Positions 92-6,561 of a stretch of DNA of 6,561 nt are shown in pieces; within the stretch, counting starts at the first letter, position 1; every line of letters starts with the position of its first letter. The stretch covers positions 1 through 6,561 of the IMG/VR virus record IMGVR_UViG_3300007790_001770; one strand, written 5' to 3'. The notes under the pieces were generated by a model. The model saw only the letters and a program-made list of their open reading frames with translations, was not told where the DNA came from and made no database searches. Both the position numbers and the translations under genes were made by a program. The DNA comes from a virus.

Positions 92-619
92 AAGACGACC
101 GGCGTCGCTTGGGGCGAGGGGTCGAAATACTGGTACGCTAAGGTGTACGACAAGGCAGGCGAGTATTTTCGCCAGTGCGGCAAGCAGGCCAAGGGCTTCA
201 ATGCCGACCTGTTTGCATACATGACGACGAACGGCATAGCGCGCCACGAAATCAGCCTGAAAAGCCGTTACCTGAAACAGAACAACCTGTGGCGCTTCAC
301 TCATTGGGGTATGGGCATGCAAACCGAAGATCGCGTATATGCGCTGTTCAACGATGTGATCGGGGGCGAGACCCACGTAGATTCGTTCCTTGAGATTCCA
401 GGGCGAGCCGGAGAGCTGGCGGTCGCGTGGCGCGATGGTGCCGACCTGAAAAAGCGGCTCGCGCAAAACACGTACTACCGCTACCGGCGCGAGCTACTCA
501 AGTATGGTATCGATATTGCGGTGCCATCGAACGTGAAGCGGTTGCGCCAGCGGGTCGAGGTTATCGCGCTGTCTCCGGCCCCGGTGCCTGACTGGTACGT
601 CCTTCCAAAAGTCGCCTGA
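1..619 (+). CDS. Rolling-circle replication initiation protein (gpII-like), C-terminal part (codon phase starts at position 2; 1..91 duplicates 6471..6561)
   Basis: The frame is open from the window start to TGA at 617..619. It contains KYWYAKVYDKAGE (YDK..E at 146..163), which resembles the catalytic-Tyr motif of Rep_trans/Phage_CRI-type initiators. The M at 143 in the track is an internal GTG (Val) codon. The joined ORF 6058..6470 + 1..619 is 1032 nt (343 aa). Confidence 0.85.
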   Translation, partial: NWSTGSPGNCEQFIRYLQGFKSGRQEPRSYKTTGVAWGEGSKYWYAKVYDKAGEYFRQCGKQAKGFNADLFAYMTTNGIARHEISLKSRYLKQNNLWRFTHWGMGMQTEDRVYALFNDVIGGETHVDSFLEIPGRAGELAVAWRDGADLKKRLAQNTYYRYRRELLKYGIDIAVPSNVKRLRQRVEVIALSPAPVPDWYVLPKVA

Positions 620-758
620 CTTCCTCCGGCCTGCTCAGGCCCACTCTCAAGACGGCCTCGACGTATACGCCGAGGTGCGTCTCTTCCTTTACCGCTTGCA
701 GCTTTAGTTGAGCGTGCAAAGCCGGGTCGATGTTTAGAGTTTTAGTTGTTGGGGCCAT
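561..758 (-). CDS. Ribbon-helix-helix (Arc/CopG/ParG-like) transcriptional regulator, candidate phage repressor
   Basis: The 65-aa product TKTLNIDPALHAQLKLQAVKEETHLGVYVEAVLRVGL fits the beta-strand / helix / turn / helix RHH pattern. The fold-forming core is encoded in the rep-to-gpV-like gene gap (620..758). It is the only minus-strand gene. There is no obvious SD upstream of the ATG. Confidence 0.7.
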   Translation of the reverse strand: MAPTTKTLNIDPALHAQLKLQAVKEETHLGVYVEAVLRVGLSRPEEVRRLLEGRTSQAPGPETAR

Positions 759-768
759 GTAACAAGTG

Positions 769-783
769 ACGAAAGTATTTCGT
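769..783. promoter_or_regulatory. Palindrome ACGAAA-GTA-TTTCGT, candidate operator
   Basis: Perfect 6-bp arms (769..774 and 778..783) sit 11 nt from the RHH start codon and abut the candidate -35 box. Confidence 0.4.
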
Positions 784-1703: not shown

Positions 1704-1772
1704 ATGGCTGGTGCTGGTTTGTTGGTGATTCTCGCTACGTGCGGGGCGTTCTGGATTTTGCTTCGTGAGTAA
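1704..1772 (+). CDS. 22-aa hydrophobic micro-ORF (MAGAGLLVILATCGAFWILLRE), candidate minor coat protein or coupling leader for the gpIII-like gene
   Basis: A GGGGGG SD (1692..1697) lies 6 nt upstream of the ATG at 1704. The TAA stop at 1770..1772 overlaps the GTG start (1765) of the next gene by 8 nt. The ORF is too short for the ORF track. Confidence 0.45.
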   Translation: MAGAGLLVILATCGAFWILLRE

Positions 1773-3225
1773 GTGGCTCGGTGCCCTGTTGCTGCTGCTG
1801 GCCGGGGGCCCAGCGTTTGCGTATGCGCCTGATTATCCGGCTGTGTTCAAGGAAGCGATGTTCAACAACAGCGGTGGCAAATACACGTATTGGCCCGATC
1901 CGCAGGAGGCGTGTATCTGGTCTACTGGTAGCAATCCAATCTCGAGTTCATCAAGCGTTGCAAGTGCGGTTTTCACGCTTGAGGGCGAGCGTAATTTGAG
2001 CGCTTCCTACGTGTGTACGTGGACGTACAAAACGGGTGGGACGAATGTCGTCAGCAGATCCATTCGGTTTCATTGTCCCTATGGCGGGACGCTGAATGGC
2101 AGCCTGTGCGTCAAGGTGCCGGACGGTCAGGGCGAGCCGAAGCTATGCGATGACAAAAACCCGTTTATCCGCCGTTGGAACTATCCAGGCGCAGGCCCGT
2201 ATCCAGCGCCCAGCCATTACAACGGTTGCGTGGTGGTTCCGCTAGAAATGATGGTGTGTCGCAAGGAGGGGACGGCCTCCTATTGCATGTGGATGGTGAA
2301 GCGAACTGGCGAGGTCTATACCGGAGCGCCCGACACGCCGGGTACTGGCGCCAGCGACACGCCGGATAACCCTGACGCTCCGCCGACCAAGTCGCCGCCG
2401 ATCGTCAATCCACCGGCGCCTGATGCGCCCCCCGGTTCGGCGCCGTGCCCGACCGGCACAGTGCATGCGGGTACGTCTGCCGATGGTGTGCCGATCTGCA
2501 TGGGGACCGGCAGTTCGCCGCAAAACCCGCCAGCGCCGCCGCCAAGGATCGAGTCGAGCAAGTCCGAGGACTTGCCGGATGGTTCGACCAAAAAGACGGA
2601 TACGGTAACGCAGACAAATTCGGATGGCTCGACCACGACCACGACAACGGTCACGATCACCCGGCCCGATGGAACCAAGGAAACTAGCGGTGGAACCGTT
2701 ACTTCGAAAACGCCGTCCGGCATGGCCGGGAGGACCGACACACCTGAGAACGATAAATACGACCTGTGCAAGACGAACCCGAATCTTTCGATTTGCCGCG
2801 AGAGTTCGGTTAGTGGTACGTGTGGGGAGGTTGTGTGTATGGGTGATGCCATCCAGTGCGCCACGTTGCGCGCCGCGGCTGCGATGGAATGCCGGCAGAA
2901 GCAGGACCGGGAGGAGCTGCAGGTGCGGCCCGAGGTGGCGTTGGGCGACCAGATTTTGGCCGGGGCCGATCCGATGAAAGGACAGATTGACGAGGCGTTG
3001 AACGGTGGGCCGGTTGCCGATTTCAGCGCACCAGGGCTTGACCAGAGCGGCTTTCTCGGTGCCGGGTCGTGCCTCGCTTCGAAGTCGTTTTCCGCGTTCG
3101 GGCGCACGGTCCAGCTTGATACGGCAGTCCTGTGCGCTGACATCGAACCCTTGAAATACGTGATCTTGGCCGTGTCGTTCCTTGCGGCTTACATGATCAT
3201 TTCCAAAGCTGTGTTGGAGGCATAA
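1765..3225 (+). CDS. Minor coat / host-adsorption protein (gpIII-like)
   Basis: The ORF has a GTG start and a signal peptide MSKWLGALLLLLAGGPAFA. I count 18 cysteines. Pro-rich and Thr/Ser-rich linkers lie at about 2323..2445 and 2500..2760. A C-terminal membrane anchor LKYVILAVSFLAAYMIISKAV is present. It sits between the major coat gene and the gpVI-like gene. Confidence 0.85.
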   Translation: MSKWLGALLLLLAGGPAFAYAPDYPAVFKEAMFNNSGGKYTYWPDPQEACIWSTGSNPISSSSSVASAVFTLEGERNLSASYVCTWTYKTGGTNVVSRSIRFHCPYGGTLNGSLCVKVPDGQGEPKLCDDKNPFIRRWNYPGAGPYPAPSHYNGCVVVPLEMMVCRKEGTASYCMWMVKRTGEVYTGAPDTPGTGASDTPDNPDAPPTKSPPIVNPPAPDAPPGSAPCPTGTVHAGTSADGVPICMGTGSSPQNPPAPPPRIESSKSEDLPDGSTKKTDTVTQTNSDGSTTTTTTVTITRPDGTKETSGGTVTSKTPSGMAGRTDTPENDKYDLCKTNPNLSICRESSVSGTCGEVVCMGDAIQCATLRAAAAMECRQKQDREELQVRPEVALGDQILAGADPMKGQIDEALNGGPVADFSAPGLDQSGFLGAGSCLASKSFSAFGRTVQLDTAVLCADIEPLKYVILAVSFLAAYMIISKAVLEA

Positions 3226-3522
3226 ATGGGTTTGTTCCTTTCGGGCTTGATTGGCGCGCTGGCGGCGTCCATGGGCACGTTGGCCGGGCGCGTGATGATT
3301 GCGCTTGGCTTCGGTGTCGCTACCTATTCGGGCATCACGGCGGGCGTCGAATCGCTCAAGCAGACCGCGATTTCGCAGCTTAGCGGCTTGCCTGCCGACA
3401 CCGTGTCCATGCTCGGTTTTCTGTGGGTTGACAAGGGGCTGACGGTGATTTTCTCGGCGTTCGCCACGGCGTTGACGATGCGGACGGTTGGCGGGTCGAT
3501 CAAAAAGATGGTGTTGAAGTGA
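3226..3522 (+). CDS. Small integral membrane minor coat protein (gpVI-like)
   Basis: GGAGG (3216..3220) lies upstream, and the ATG directly follows the gpIII-like TAA stop. The 98-aa product has several hydrophobic segments (LFLSGLIGALAASMGTLAG, VMIALGFGVATYSGI, LTVIFSAFATALTM). It lies immediately before the Zot-like gene. Confidence 0.75.
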   Translation: MGLFLSGLIGALAASMGTLAGRVMIALGFGVATYSGITAGVESLKQTAISQLSGLPADTVSMLGFLWVDKGLTVIFSAFATALTMRTVGGSIKKMVLK

Positions 3523-4721
3523 TTACGCTGTTCACTGGCCTGCCGGGGAACGGCAAAACGCTCTTTGCGCTTACGTACATCAAGGAGAAAGCGGAGCGTG
3601 AGAACAGGCAGGTGTTCTATCACGGCGTGAACGAATGTACGCTTCCCTGGACACCGTTCAAGGCCGAGGAGTGGATGGACCTGCCTTACGGCTCGATGGT
3701 CCTGATCGATGAATGCCAGTTCGTCTTTCCGCGCAAGCCGAACGGTTCGGTGCTGCCTGCGTTCTACGAGAAGCTTGCAACGCATCGGCATTACGGCTTC
3801 GATATTTTCTTGATCACTCAGCATCCGACGCTGATCGATAACTTCGTGCGGAAGCTGACCGGGCAGCACTTTCATTCGGTACGCAAGTTCGGTCTGAACC
3901 GGGCGACGATCTACGAATGGTCACAGGTGGCCCCAGCGCCGGAAACGGCTGCTGCGCAAAAAACGGCGGTTCCGCTGAAGTGGGCTTTCAACAAGGAGGC
4001 GTACAGCTGGTATAAGTCGGCGGAGGTGCACACGGTCAAGCGCGCGATTCCGGCGAAGTTGTACGTTGCAGTCGCTTTTGTGGTGCTGGTGCTCGCTGCG
4101 CTGTACTGGTTCGTTGACCGTTTCAATGAACGACGCGCGGCGGAGGAGGCCGGTCAATCCACTGTCGCCCAGGTTGCGCCGGTCGCATTGCCGGTTGCTG
4201 CGCCAGCTGGTGGTGCGTCTGGTCCTGTGCCGTTCGACCCGGTCGCTGACGCGAAACACTATGTCGCGATGCAGACGCCGCGCATCGAAGGCTTGCCGCA
4301 CACAGCGCCGAAGTACGACGCGATCACGGTGCCGGTGCGCGCTCCGGTGCCTGCCGCCTGTATCCAGATGGGCGACGTTCGACAGCCTGACGCGAATATT
4401 CGCTGCAAGTGCTTCTCGCAGCAAGGGACGCCGATGGCTGTCGAATTCAACATGTGTCTGGAGATTGCGCGCAATGGCTATTTCCGCGATTTCGACGCGG
4501 ACCGTGACAGTCGGCAGTCGCAGCGTGCGGAAAACGGCGTAGCGGTGCTCCAGAACCGGCAGGAGGCCGGACCTAGCCCTACCCGCGATGGACCCACGGT
4601 GCTGGCGTTTAACCACGTTCCTGACGCCCCCAGGGCGATTGCTGCGCCTTCGGTGATTGATGACGGCCCGCCGAATCCGAATGCTCGTGCACGACATGCG
4701 CAGGTCCCCTCGGCGCAGTAG
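3519..4721 (+). CDS. zot: Zot-family assembly ATPase (gpI-like)
   Basis: The GTG start overlaps the upstream stop (GTGA at 3519..3522). The N-terminus MITLFTGLPGNGKT is a Walker A motif and MVLIDECQ is a Walker B motif. YKSAEVHT is followed by a transmembrane helix LYVAVAFVVLVLAALYWFV. A Cys-containing periplasmic C-terminal domain follows. Confidence 0.93.
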   Translation: MITLFTGLPGNGKTLFALTYIKEKAERENRQVFYHGVNECTLPWTPFKAEEWMDLPYGSMVLIDECQFVFPRKPNGSVLPAFYEKLATHRHYGFDIFLITQHPTLIDNFVRKLTGQHFHSVRKFGLNRATIYEWSQVAPAPETAAAQKTAVPLKWAFNKEAYSWYKSAEVHTVKRAIPAKLYVAVAFVVLVLAALYWFVDRFNERRAAEEAGQSTVAQVAPVALPVAAPAGGASGPVPFDPVADAKHYVAMQTPRIEGLPHTAPKYDAITVPVRAPVPAACIQMGDVRQPDANIRCKCFSQQGTPMAVEFNMCLEIARNGYFRDFDADRDSRQSQRAENGVAVLQNRQEAGPSPTRDGPTVLAFNHVPDAPRAIAAPSVIDDGPPNPNARARHAQVPSAQ

Positions 4722-4727
4722 CGGAAG

Positions 4728-4763
4728 CCGACCGCAGACCGCGACCGACCCGGGCGCGGTCGG
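4728..4763 (+). other. GC-rich stem-loop with alternative pairings just after the gpI-like stop
   Basis: CCGACCGC (4728..4735) pairs with GCGGTCGG (4756..4763). An alternative stem is GACCGCG (4738..4744) with CGCGGTC (4755..4761). GACCG occurs three times (4730, 4738, 4743). The T-run at 4779..4784 is 15 nt away, so this is not a canonical terminator. Confidence 0.4.
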
Positions 4764-4785
4764 AGGGCGGCTAGTTCCTTTTTTA

Positions 4786-4874
4786 TTTATCGTCACCGTT
4801 ACGCAAAAGCCGCACTGAGCGGGATTTTCGTTGCCGTTACAAAAAATCATTTGGATTTATCGTTACGGTGACGG
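4786..4874 (+). repeat. Iteron-like direct repeats plus a 13-bp imperfect inverted repeat in the intergenic region upstream of the accessory cassette
   Basis: The direct repeats are TTTATCGTCACCGTTAC (4786..4802), TTTTCGTTGCCGTTAC (4825..4840) and TTTATCGTTAC (4856..4866). CGTCACCGTTACG (4791..4803) is the reverse complement of CGTTACGGTGACG (4861..4873) at 12 of 13 positions. An inner hairpin CCGC-actga-GCGG (4810..4822) is flanked by A4/T4. Confidence 0.5.
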
Positions 4875-4903
4875 AAAATACGTTTCATTGCTTGGGAGGA
4901 ATT

Positions 4904-5254
4904 ATGGCGCGTAAGGATAATGTGACGGTTGAATTGCCGGGATTGCCCCCGCGACGTGGGCGACCGGCTACGGGAAAGGCGAAGAGTGGCGCGGAACGGC
5001 AGCGGGCATACCGGAAGAAGTTGCGCGAGGCTCAGGTTAGCGGTGTCCAGATATCGCCAGGGTCGGGCTGGCGGTCTGAGAAGGAATACGAGGAATTGAG
5101 ACGAATGATGAATTTCAGTCGCAATTCCATGTTCAAGATGGAGCAGAACATTCTTGCGTATCAGAAGGAAATCGCGTTGCTGGTCGAGGAACGCAGAAAA
5201 CTGTTCGCCGAGGTCGAGCGGTTGCAGGCGGAATTGGCGCGGAGGGGCAAGTGA
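4904..5254 (+). CDS. Hypothetical basic-region plus coiled-coil protein (bZIP-like architecture), candidate DNA-binding regulator
   Basis: ATG at 4904 has a GGGAGGA SD at 4894..4900. The GTG at 4868 in the track has no SD. The 116-aa product has an N-terminal basic stretch PPRRGRPATGKAKSGAERQRAYRKKLRE. Its C-terminus EQNILAYQKEIALLVEERRKLFAEVERLQAELARR has heptad-like spacing of hydrophobic residues. Confidence 0.7.
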   Translation: MARKDNVTVELPGLPPRRGRPATGKAKSGAERQRAYRKKLREAQVSGVQISPGSGWRSEKEYEELRRMMNFSRNSMFKMEQNILAYQKEIALLVEERRKLFAEVERLQAELARRGK

Positions 5255-5349
5255 TGGAGCGGCTACTGTACTGGATCGCCTTGCTGGTGATGGCCCTGTT
5301 TGTGTTTGTGTTGGTGTTTGTGTTGTTCGGGTTGTATCGACTTAACTAA
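5254..5349 (+). CDS. 31-aa single-pass transmembrane micro-protein (MERLLYWIALLVMALFVFVLVFVLFGLYRLN)
   Basis: A GGAGGGG SD (5241..5247) lies 6 nt upstream. The ATG overlaps the upstream TGA (TGATG at 5252..5256). TAA is at 5347..5349. The ORF is not in the track, which instead lists an alternative-frame ORF 5154..5345 across the same G/T-rich tract. Confidence 0.5.
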   Translation: MERLLYWIALLVMALFVFVLVFVLFGLYRLN

Positions 5350-5364
5350 CGAAAGGATTCGTCA

Positions 5365-5811
5365 ATGAGTACACCGTATCAAGAGGCTATGCACTGGATC
5401 GAGGTCGAGGGCTATTCCACCGGCAGCGCGTTTAGCCTGGCGAAGCTGATCCTCTCCCTGTACAACGACCAGTGCGGATTTGCGATCAGCGAATGTATCG
5501 GCAACCTCGATCCCCGACTTACTCGTTTGGCCCTGGCGATGGTGGAGCATTACGCGCGTCACGGCGAGCACCCCGAGCTGCTTCGTGCGGGGAAGAAGAT
5601 CGCCGACGACCTGTATCCGCGCTTGTGGGAACAGGGCGTGGCAATGGCTGAAGTGCGCGCCGAGTTGCGCCGGCGATGGGAGCGCGAAGCCGAGGCTGAA
5701 AATCAGTGTGAGGATCCGGATATGTGCCTTTCCTGTAATGGCACCGGTCAGTTTGACGGCGAGGATTGTCTCCGTTGCCAAGGAACTGGTTTCTTGCCGG
5801 AAGGCGAATAG
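5365..5811 (+). CDS. Hypothetical protein with a C-terminal DnaJ-type zinc-knuckle pair (2 x CxxCxGxG)
   Basis: An AAAGGA SD (5352..5357) lies 7 nt upstream. The 148-aa product has GC-rich third codon positions. The C-terminus is CLSCNGTGQFDGEDCLRCQGTG. The N-terminal roughly 110 aa is helical-looking with no motif I can name confidently. Confidence 0.75.
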   Translation: MSTPYQEAMHWIEVEGYSTGSAFSLAKLILSLYNDQCGFAISECIGNLDPRLTRLALAMVEHYARHGEHPELLRAGKKIADDLYPRLWEQGVAMAEVRAELRRRWEREAEAENQCEDPDMCLSCNGTGQFDGEDCLRCQGTGFLPEGE

Positions 5812-5869
5812 GCCTTGTTGCAAAGCTCGCCCAACTAGCCGTTGAGTTCTCGAGGTGGGCGCGCCAGCG

Positions 5870-5950
5870 GGCCGGTTTTTCGCTTTAGCGGCCTGTCGCC
5901 CGTTGAGGGCGACACCCACCGTATCCCCGGCGGTCCTCCAGACCGTCCGG
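5870..5950 (+). other. Cluster of three consecutive stem-loops in the rep-upstream intergenic region (candidate ssDNA origin / packaging-signal structures)
   Basis: Stem-loop 1 is GGCCG/CGGCC (5870..5893, 14-nt loop). Stem-loop 2 is a perfect 7-bp stem GTCGCCC-gttga-GGGCGAC (5895..5913). Stem-loop 3 is CCGGCGG/CCG(T)CCGG, a 7-bp stem with one bulge (5927..5950). Confidence 0.5.
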
Positions 5951-5988
5951 CCACGTACAGTTGGGCTGAGGTAAAATGTTGCTCGCCC

Positions 5989-6028
5989 GGAAAGTTTCCA
6001 ACTTTACGTGCCTGTAACACGTAAAGTT
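5989..6028 (+). promoter_or_regulatory. Palindrome GGAAAgTTTCC followed by a perfect 11-bp inverted repeat AACTTTACGTG-N7-CACGTAAAGTT, 30 nt upstream of the rep start
   Basis: The palindrome is at 5989..5999. The IR arms are at 6000..6010 and 6018..6028 with loop cctgtaa. This is the longest perfect inverted repeat I found in the window. Confidence 0.55.
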
Positions 6029-6057
6029 ATTACCAAAATTGAGGAAGGAACCCGCGC

Positions 6058-6561
6058 ATGGGGGGGGTTTTCTGCGATTGGTTGTCGATCTATCAGGTGC
6101 ATCTGGGCGGTGTCCCGGTCGTCAATTCAGGACATGTGTTTTCGGTTGATCAGGATGGTGTCGTACAGTGGGATGTGCCGCAAAAACTGGTGCACAGAGG
6201 TTCGCATGACACGTCGATACGCATCCGTTCGGATGGCCACCGCGTTTCTCTGGAAGGGAACATCGGTCGGTTTGATCGTTCTGACAACTTGTTCGGTTAC
6301 TCGGTGCTAGAGTGCGTGAGGCTGGCAAATCGTTTGCTGGCACAGTTCGGCCTTCCTCCGTTCTCGGATGCTGCACCTATGCCGCTGGTCAAAAAGGTCG
6401 GGGCCAGTGGCGACGTCGACGGCGGCTTTCAAGCGGTCGGTGCCGTCATCACGCGCATCGACCTCACTTGCAACTGGTCGACTGGCTCGCCCGGCAATTG
6501 CGAGCAGTTCATTCGTTATCTGCAAGGCTTCAAGTCGGGACGGCAGGAGCCGCGTTCGTAC
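6058..6561 (+). CDS. Rolling-circle replication initiation protein (gpII-like), N-terminal part; the ORF runs off the window end and continues at position 92 via the circular junction
   Basis: ATG at 6058 is the first start after an in-frame TGA at 6040..6042. A GAGGAAGG Shine-Dalgarno sits at 6041..6048. 168 codons are open to the window end (MGGVFCDWLSIYQVHLGG...). The reading phase at 6471 matches the phase of the ORF ending at 619. The ORF has no stop inside the window, so it is absent from the ORF track. Confidence 0.85.
   Translation, partial: MGGVFCDWLSIYQVHLGGVPVVNSGHVFSVDQDGVVQWDVPQKLVHRGSHDTSIRIRSDGHRVSLEGNIGRFDRSDNLFGYSVLECVRLANRLLAQFGLPPFSDAAPMPLVKKVGASGDVDGGFQAVGAVITRIDLTCNWSTGSPGNCEQFIRYLQGFKSGRQEPRSY
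6471..6561 (+). repeat. Terminal direct repeat, copy B (identical to 1..91)
   Basis: This is the same 91-mer as 1..91. It is typical of a circular molecule linearised with an assembly overlap. Confidence 0.97.

Follow-up and report, generated by a model that had tools for sequence, protein, structure and literature searches.

Three small open reading frames (ORFs) lie between the zot and rep genes of the inovirus sequence IMGVR_UViG_3300007790_001770, a stretch of 6,561 nt that is hereafter called the window. The question raised by this locus is whether the three genes, designated A, B, and C, work together as one accessory system or have come to the same place separately. From the distribution of the gene families described below, we consider it reasonably probable that the region is a mosaic and not a unit, composed of a conserved AT-hook-type regulator gene (gene A) and two lineage-specific cargo genes (ORF B and ORF C).

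The three genes and their distribution

Gene A (ORF A; 4904–5254, plus strand) encodes a protein of 116 amino acids (aa) and is preceded by the Shine-Dalgarno (SD) sequence GGGAGG at 4894–4899. ORF B (5254–5349, plus strand; 31 aa) has GGAGGGG upstream, and ORF C (5365–5811, plus strand; 148 aa) has an AAGGA SD sequence. The ATG of ORF B and the TGA stop of ORF A overlap by one base (TGATG), indicating translational coupling, and ORF C begins 15 nt past the stop of ORF B. For all three genes, codon-usage log-odds trained on the core genes give positive values in the annotated frame only, and their G+C contents at third codon positions (GC3) are 0.69–0.75 (0.75 in ORF B) compared with 0.70 in the core genes. 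Independent gene calls on four sibling contigs (L009–L012) gave the same three genes. The original prediction, made from the sequence of the window, had described three SD-equipped genes at these coordinates with A and B coupled, and the codon scores and gene calls agree with it. The four siblings were also considered as evidence of selection, but each differs from the window by one single-nucleotide polymorphism (SNP) and is uninformative in this respect.

The block is located between zot (3519–4721) and rep (6058 onward), as had been described, in a slot that holds regulators and cargo in inoviruses. The non-coding regions on both sides are structured, as also proposed: compared with shuffled controls, the single-stranded DNA (ssDNA) fold gives z = −5.6 for 4722–4903 and z = −5.1 for 5812–6057. 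No intrinsic terminator was detected inside the A–B–C block or between ORF C and rep. The expected features of the products are all present (basic and coiled-coil regions in A, a hydrophobic helix in B, and a zinc knuckle in C), and the family scans identified no product homologous to a canonical coat, assembly, or replication protein. A scan of the three products against PADLOC-DB v2 gave no significant defence model; the matches were marginal and consisted of PDC-M01B on the zinc knuckle of ORF C (7e-4) and a 2TM effector on ORF B (0.08). When PDB was searched by sequence and by profile with A, C, and the C domain, only noise was returned.

Six-frame hidden Markov model (HMM) scans of 76 loci found the A family in 20 and the C family in 34. 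The two families coincide only in the window and its four siblings. The contig L045, whose rep gene aligns with that of the window at ~75% nucleotide identity, has the order zot, A, rep, without B or C. The similarity between L045 and the window resumes exactly at 6001, in an inverted repeat upstream of rep, and the distance from gene A to this position is 148 nt in L045 versus 747 nt in the window; therefore, ORF B, ORF C, and the region 5812–6000 constitute an indel of ~600 nt. The C domain was found in 29 loci besides the window lineage (plasmids, integrative and conjugative element (ICE)-like elements, and unclassified contigs), and none of these has gene A, a zinc knuckle, or a B-like ORF. 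The original prediction had treated the three genes as one accessory cassette and an undescribed system, and had proposed to abandon this idea if the genes were unlinked in relatives. Because the A and C families overlap only in the window and its siblings, the genes are unlinked, and the idea of a single cassette is not sustained. The accompanying description of the block as variable cargo survives for ORF B and ORF C, which are lineage-specific additions missing from L045, but not for gene A, because this gene is conserved and syntenic downstream of zot.

Gene A and the GTnAC dyads

The product of gene A is composed of an N-terminal AT-hook-like RRGRP motif and a basic helix (residues ~4–45), a linker, and a coiled-coil helix (59–115) that contains an SMWKME block. 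In the AlphaFold2 (AF2) model, a disordered N-terminus with the RRGRP motif is followed by a basic helix (29–45), a Gly/Pro linker, and a 57-residue helix (59–115), which has predicted local distance difference test (pLDDT) scores above 90. A Foldseek search of PDB with this model found nothing, which is not surprising for one long helix. A basic leucine zipper (bZIP) architecture was considered and rejected because the two helices are split by the low-confidence Gly/Pro-rich linker.

An exhaustive HMMER search with ORF A identified 95 protein clusters at E ≤ 0.001, two of which are full-length. Except for a few long coiled-coil proteins, the clusters have in common the N-terminal ~45 residues (MARKDN-T-ELPG-RRGRP-TGKAK-A-RQ-AYR-R). 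A profile search yielded eight full-length relatives with identities of 43–51%, in which the central block Y-E-M-F-R-SMWKME-I and the C-terminal coiled coil are also conserved. When ORF A was aligned with 29 relatives, G19, R20, A26, and R32 were invariant, and P21, G24, Y36, and R37 were near-invariant. The order of the motif elements (ELPG, RGRP-x-TG-x-A, and A-x-RQ-x-x-YR-x-R) is present in ORF A, and its N-terminus matches PHROG 6334 (1e-10). The tails of the 29 aligned motif proteins differ (coiled coil, ribbon-helix-helix (RHH)-like, and others). Because the same head occurs on RHH-like tails in relatives, the motif appears to be a portable DNA-contact module.

The full-length ORF A subfamily was found only in metagenome assemblies, and a pattern scan for it in IMG/VR and the GTDB representative genomes gave none. 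Searches by tblastn with ORF A and with a paralogue that carries the motif and an RHH-like tail gave no match in phages or plasmids. At least the phage negatives are false, because the HMM finds the motif in the Ralstonia phages p12J and YO001_4; the low-complexity filter of BLAST may hide the basic motif, which would make a negative tblastn result for this motif unreliable.

The gene A relatives with readable context are all located just downstream of zot (L045, L043/44, L042, L046/47, L057, and L058). L043 and L042 have the order zot, small ORF, paralogue with the motif and an RHH-like tail, A, and 94-aa ORF, followed by rep in L043. The short contig L057 repeats the L043 order between the small ORF and the point where the 94-aa ORF starts, and a hydrophobic ORF of 42 aa immediately precedes A. 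The order is zot, 41-aa hydrophobic ORF, and A in L046/47, and zot and A in L058. In p12J, ORF8 (164 aa) is flanked by ORF7 (zot) and ORF9 (rep) and is hit by the motif HMM at 4.9e-17; it passes the Pfam AT_hook model (PF02178; 17.9 bits versus a cutoff of 17.4) and continues into a coiled coil. The motif HMM also matches a 245-aa ORF in YO001_4. Motif and coiled-coil proteins of 139–151 aa occur in Pseudomonas aeruginosa, in tandem inovirus prophages without an integrase, where their genes are placed within a divergent regulatory module between rep and zot. The small upstream ORF beside the motif gene is a cI-type helix-turn-helix (HTH) repressor in the P0145 prophages and an unannotated 63-aa ORF in the P0140 prophages. 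The position in the zot–rep slot holds for the window, L042, L043, L045, L046, L057, L058, p12J, and the P. aeruginosa prophages. Judging from this gene order, gene A is conserved and syntenic across this inovirus group.

Proteins of this kind have been noted already: the filamentous prophages of Cupriavidus and Ralstonia encode, downstream of pI, a putative regulator with an AT-hook (A3AADRAFT_00010 type), for which the function was postulated (Front Microbiol 2023; PMC10011098). ORF A resembles these regulators and p12J ORF8 in its small size, in the RGRP-type motif that is N-terminal rather than C-terminal, and in the location of the gene immediately after zot and before rep. In contrast, it belongs to a distinct full-length subfamily with the Y-E-M-F-R-SMWKME block, and its hook is below the Pfam AT_hook cutoff, unlike that of p12J ORF8. 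The resemblance of ORF A to the STM 6018 protein is one of description. We found no literature on the function of p12J ORF8.

A second comparison is with the small RHH regulators of rolling-circle replicons (PF10723 RepB-RCR_reg; CopG/Arc-like), because the ORF A motif is found on RHH-like tails in L013, L014, L042, L043, L057, P0108, and others. These relatives adjoin rep and are located downstream of the same GTnAC dyads as described below. Their RHH assignment is borderline, consisting of a PF10723 match in L013 (20.2 bits versus a cutoff of 21), precomputed PF10723 matches in other relatives, and weak BrnA matches in some. ORF A itself differs from the PF10723 regulators in having a coiled coil instead of the RHH fold, and gives no PF10723 match.

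Three side observations concern the neighbourhood of the motif genes. ORF8 of Ralstonia phage PE226 (L059; 4136–4318) has the same first 12 residues as p12J ORF8 (MRDVTDNVTGEL), followed by a hydrophobic tail, and looks like a frameshifted or truncated remnant of an AT-hook gene. The 94-aa ORF between A and rep (MQLELFPYDSLT...CCR-QCSRTKQPFNPC-YC; L042 2398–2682, L043 6012–6296, and L057 1247–1432) has a Cys-rich C-terminus and no Pfam match, and is absent from the window. In L013, a 6.2-kb inovirus contig, the motif and RHH-like regulator is immediately followed by a gene (5587–6135) for the type VI secretion system (T6SS) tube protein Hcp (PF05638, E = 2.3e-40). For a filamentous phage, this is unusual cargo; a further Hcp gene is present in the ICE-like locus L001 (6681–7172, minus strand).

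The non-coding region between zot and gene A begins with the terminator of the structural/assembly operon (4726–4786, plus strand), a hairpin with 22-nt arms (4726–4747/4751–4772) followed by a T-run, and the same layout is found after zot in L045. It is followed by an operator-like array (4787–4878, plus strand) of three 22-nt repeats (4787–4808, 4825–4846, and 4857–4878), each of which consists of a T-rich flank, a GTnAC-N-GTnAC dyad, and an A-rich flank. A strict dyad was defined as GTnAC-N1-2-GTnAC, of which 0.04–0.5 are expected per sequence. Strict dyads are present at 4792–4802 (GTCACCGTTAC) and 4862–4872 (GTTACGGTGAC), and the copy at 4830–4840 is degenerate. The evidence for the array includes 4 matches versus 0.47 expected.

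The dyads are associated with the motif gene beyond the window. In nine regions upstream of the motif gene, GTnAC half-sites occur at 30.8 per kb compared with 2.6–5.1 per kb genome-wide. Of the 11 distinct phage lineages, 8 have strict dyads directly upstream of the motif gene; counted by sequence, this is 11 of the 13 that were scanned, two of which represent the P. aeruginosa prophages (the upstream region of L057 was undefined). The carriers are the window, L046, L058, L043, L042, p12J, YO001_4, L013, and the P. aeruginosa prophages; L045 and L014 have degenerate dyads at this place. In the P. aeruginosa prophages, GTGACGCGTCAC, which is identical to the dyad of L046, is located 52 nt upstream of the motif gene. 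As a side observation, the P. aeruginosa loci L052–L056 (GCA_025124795.1, GCA_046355205.1, and CP078009.1) are tandem prophages in which the motif and coiled-coil gene of each copy is preceded by GTGACGCGTCAC, and these copies have a second dyad ~300 nt downstream, inside the motif gene.

Sequences similar to the −10 hexamer abut the dyads, namely TATAAT in L042 and L043, TAAAAT in L046, L058, and p12J, and GAAAAT in the window. A putative weak promoter, P_A (4851–4879, plus strand), can be assigned in the window from TTGGAT (4851–4856), a 17-nt spacer containing the dyad at 4862–4872, and GAAAAT (4874–4879). The third and only other strict dyad of the genome, GTAACAAGTGAC (759–770, plus strand), is located in the intergenic hub between rep and the ssDNA-binding protein gene; a promoter-like site of the structural operon (TTGACT-18-TACTAT, 783–812) follows it 13 nt downstream. 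This dyad abuts the start of a minus-strand ORF (561–758; 65 aa), which has weak matches to FitA, HicB, and Arc-like proteins, overlaps the 3′ end of rep in antisense, and is a candidate repressor of the RHH type. The gene calls of L045 include no gene at the corresponding place.

The structured region between ORF C and rep (5812–6057, plus strand) is a candidate rep operator or origin. It contains an inverted repeat with perfectly matching 11-nt arms and a spacer of 7 nt (AACTTTACGTG CCTGTAA CACGTAAAGTT; 6000–6010/6018–6028) just upstream of the rep SD sequence, which is kept in L045 (3053–3081). From its form and position, this repeat could be the rep operator, or the origin or nick site.

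Most parsimoniously, these observations would point to gene A as the factor that reads the dyads, and another assignment has to be weighed against it: the dyads may be bound by the RHH-like protein of 561–758, by Rep, or by a host protein, while gene A serves as a replication or packaging accessory or as a nucleoid-like silencer. The abutment of the RHH-like ORF and the dyad at 759–770 agrees with this assignment, and so does the paralogue with the RHH-like tail that precedes A in L042, L043, and L057, which could be the true operator binder; moreover, gene A always neighbours rep. We nevertheless regard it as unlikely, though worth keeping in view, because in L045, L046, L058, p12J, and the P. 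aeruginosa prophages the dyads are located upstream of a motif and coiled-coil gene with no RHH paralogue detected, and the N-terminal motif is the only element common to all dyad-associated genes. A Xer-related role for gene A was rejected, as the best dif-like attP matches correspond to the shuffled expectation.

ORF B and ORF C

ORF B (5254–5349, plus strand) encodes a single-pass hydrophobic micro-protein (MERLLYWIALLVMALFVFVLVFVLFGLYRLN) consisting of a single uninterrupted hydrophobic helix with a maximum hydropathy of 3.2. It is an orphan, with no relatives or family match in the family scans, and no B-like ORF was found upstream of the C relatives. ORF B is probably translated, because it is coupled to A, has an SD sequence, and has a frame-specific codon score. 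That it is instead an untranslated ORF that arose by chance in the A–C spacer seems rather unlikely to us: the TGATG overlap and the upstream GGAGGGG, a codon score that is positive in only the annotated one of six frames, the GC3 of 0.75, the strongly hydrophobic helix, and the independent gene calls stand against a length of only 31 codons, the lack of any relative or family match, and the occurrence of other copies solely in the near-identical siblings.

Small hydrophobic ORFs were also observed immediately upstream of A in L046 (2531–2656; 41 aa) and L057 (509–637; 42 aa). They have no clear similarity to each other or to ORF B; a membrane micro-protein adjoining gene A may be a recurring theme.

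The nearest functional analogue of ORF B, by size and predicted location, would be PfsE (PA0721) of Pseudomonas phage Pf4, a superinfection-exclusion micro-protein that binds PilC and is the smallest of the Pf4 proteins (PMC8764522). Both are inovirus-encoded peptides of ~30 aa that are predicted to reside in the inner membrane. In contrast, ORF B has no sequence similarity to PfsE and lacks its conserved YAWGW aromatic cluster. The position of the PfsE gene on the Pf4 map is presumably different from that of ORF B.

ORF C consists of two parts, an all-helical N-terminal domain (5365–5688, plus strand; residues 1–108) and a zinc knuckle (5725–5790, plus strand), in which two CxxCxGxG motifs are separated by six residues (C121, C124, C135, and C138). 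The N-terminal domain is 59–62% identical to four proteins of 222–235 aa (P0002–P0005). The contigs of P0002 and P0003 are ICE- or plasmid-like, with DUF3701-type integrases near both and a relaxase/NikA near P0002. Relatives that are 47–53% identical are found as stand-alone hypothetical proteins on 23 plasmids, 20 of which are from Xanthomonas (including pXCV183) and the rest from Stenotrophomonas, Magnetospirillum, and Rhodanobacter; the three that were read are 106–119 aa long. Further relatives are present in 17 metagenomic loci, with one distant copy on an 80-kb viral contig. A direct search for inovirus core genes, which covered the 17 metagenomic loci, found none. No conserved neighbour of the C domain was found, and a pattern scan for the C family in the GTDB genomes gave none.

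The domain is similar to DUF7673 (PF24720). Residues 14–79 of ORF C align to positions 10–77 of the 85-position model with 21.6 bits (E = 2.2e-4), and 6 of 10 C-family members tested give sub-threshold matches (16–23 bits) in the same register. Because the score of ORF C is below the gathering cutoff of 27, we call it DUF7673-like and do not file it as a member. The literature search on DUF7673 found nothing. The AF2 model of ORF C, calculated from a 6-sequence alignment, had a pLDDT of 48.7 and was not used for a fold search.

The tail is similar to anti-TRAP (RtpA) and DnaJ in having two CxxCxGxG motifs with the same spacing. Its match to the NCBIfam model RtpA (NF058604; E = 1.7e-5) scores 24.8 bits versus a cutoff of 65, with residues 121–143 corresponding to model positions 12–34; that to Pfam DnaJ_CXXCXGXG scores 15.7 bits versus a cutoff of 32.7, the Pfam Anti-TRAP match is weak, and that to PDB entry 3lcz has E = 0.11. 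Unlike RtpA and DnaJ, the tail is a match of a 23-residue motif only, attached to an unrelated domain, with no hint of TRAP or DnaK biology. The zinc-knuckle pattern is found in no other locus among those fetched. ORF C differs from the other C-domain members in this tail and in its inovirus setting, and from the sequences compared it is a unique fusion and the only member of the C-domain family seen in an inovirus. The tail is probably for protein binding. We also considered that ORF C arose by fusion of a plasmid domain to the small gene downstream of it, and rejected this because those downstream genes are mutually unrelated and have no cysteines.

A more specific role for ORF C would be that of a counter-defence or anti-plasmid effector captured from conjugative elements, in which the domain targets a host or plasmid factor and the knuckle adds a chaperone- or inhibitor-like contact. 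The domain does occur on plasmids, ICE-like elements, unclassified metagenomic contigs, and the 80-kb viral contig, often within arrays of uncharacterised small genes, with genes for a relaxase, integrase, KfrA, or ParA nearby, and the geometry of the zinc knuckle is that of anti-TRAP, a known protein inhibitor. However, no member of the C-domain family has a known function or a conserved partner, the literature on DUF7673 yielded nothing, the structure model (pLDDT 49) is unusable, and the anti-TRAP and DnaJ matches stay at the level of a short motif, below the family thresholds. We therefore consider such a role quite unlikely.

A model of the region and its genome context

In the model that we favour, gene A would encode a dimeric, autoregulated DNA-binding regulator that heads the rep operon. 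Its N-terminal head, with the RGRP motif as a minor-groove hook and the basic helix, would be mounted on the coiled coil as a dimerisation stalk. The dimer would bind the A/T-flanked GTnAC dyads in its own promoter and beside the promoter of the structural operon. In this way, it would autoregulate and set the expression of its own operon, which would read through into rep, as no terminator is detectable before rep, and it may also touch the structural-operon promoter via the dyad at 759–770. ORF B and ORF C would be insertions that separate gene A from the conserved control region that precedes rep; lying behind A, they would be co-expressed with it. ORF C would represent a plasmid- or ICE-borne DUF7673-like domain that acquired a zinc-knuckle tail, and the most plausible general role of B and C would be the manipulation of the host or of competitors.

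Several observations weigh against this mosaic model. ORF A gives no Pfam AT_hook (PF02178) match at E ≤ 1, P_A fits 7 of 12 consensus positions and was missed by the promoter scan because it is under the threshold, and the RHH-like protein of the window (561–758, minus strand) could be the dyad binder. The structure that follows C could act as a terminator or attenuator of transcription ahead of rep. The tight coupling of A and B and the compact layout on one strand also fit a functional module, and a link between A and a micro-protein is possible because small hydrophobic ORFs recur beside gene A in L046 and L057. In addition, the sole carriers of B and C besides the window are near-identical to it and are thus silent on selection on B or C.

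Two bolder readings can be placed beside the mosaic model, and we rate them below the effector role of ORF C. One is an undescribed exclusion or plasmid-interference module formed by a lineage-specific, P_A-driven payload, in which ORF B blocks the phage's own receptor or secretion route in the manner of PfsE and ORF C, with its plasmid-captured domain, binds a host or conjugative-plasmid factor; the other, independent of it, is a portable GTnAC-reading head that inoviruses infecting several proteobacterial hosts have exchanged between coiled-coil and RHH scaffolds. The least likely reading is that A, B, and C with their DNA-binding, membrane, and zinc-finger parts form one undescribed lysogeny or host-manipulation module, for example for superinfection exclusion: the single strand, the A/B coupling, the 15-nt gap, the lack of an internal terminator, the small transmembrane (TM) peptides beside gene A in L046 and L057, and the precedent of PfsE, a very small inovirus protein that can mediate exclusion (PMC8764522), are outweighed by the coincidence of A-type and C-type families in 0 of 71 loci outside this lineage, by L045 with A alone, by C relatives without a B-like partner, by the lack of a meaningful PADLOC defence model, and by the differing positions and sequences of the TM peptides in relatives.

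The window is a complete circular inovirus genome of ~6.47 kb that was assembled with a terminal overlap of ~90 nt. The same ~90 nt, encoding the peptide NWSTGSPGNCEQFIRYLQGFKSGRQEPRSY, are found at 1–91 and 6472–6561, and the sibling contig L009 is a rotated copy of the window sequence; the completeness and circularity follow from these two observations. The rep gene starts at 6058, runs to 6561, and continues across the circle junction at 92–619, encoding 343 aa with Phage_CRI and G2P_X_C domains. The other core genes encode the ssDNA-binding protein (887–1186), the major coat protein (1432–1632), a pIII-like protein (1765–3225), pVI (DUF2523; 3226–3522), and Zot/pI (3519–4721). A hydrophobic 36-aa ORF (1662–1772) between the major coat and pIII-like genes encodes a possible minor coat protein (pVII/pIX-like). 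No secretin gene was found among the window ORFs or in the family scans. The genome originates from soil metagenomes (PRJNA281298). The closest annotated phages are distant, with Zot identities of ≤42% to the Ralstonia phages p12J and PE226. A megablast search of the whole window against phages gave no match, and a scan of the whole window with Rfam at E ≤ 1 returned nothing.

Both the motif–dyad association and the plasmid-derived zinc-knuckle fusion are modest leads that would be of little surprise to specialists. ORF C shows that an inovirus can acquire a plasmid- or ICE-borne domain, and is a minor case of genes passing between plasmids and filamentous phages. Gene A would be a conserved regulator with predicted operators that heads the replication operon in widespread, little-studied filamentous phages, among them phages that infect the plant pathogen Ralstonia and prophages found in P. 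aeruginosa. The link between its motif and the dyads may provide an experimental handle on the control of replication and virion production, which shapes the effect of these phages on host virulence.

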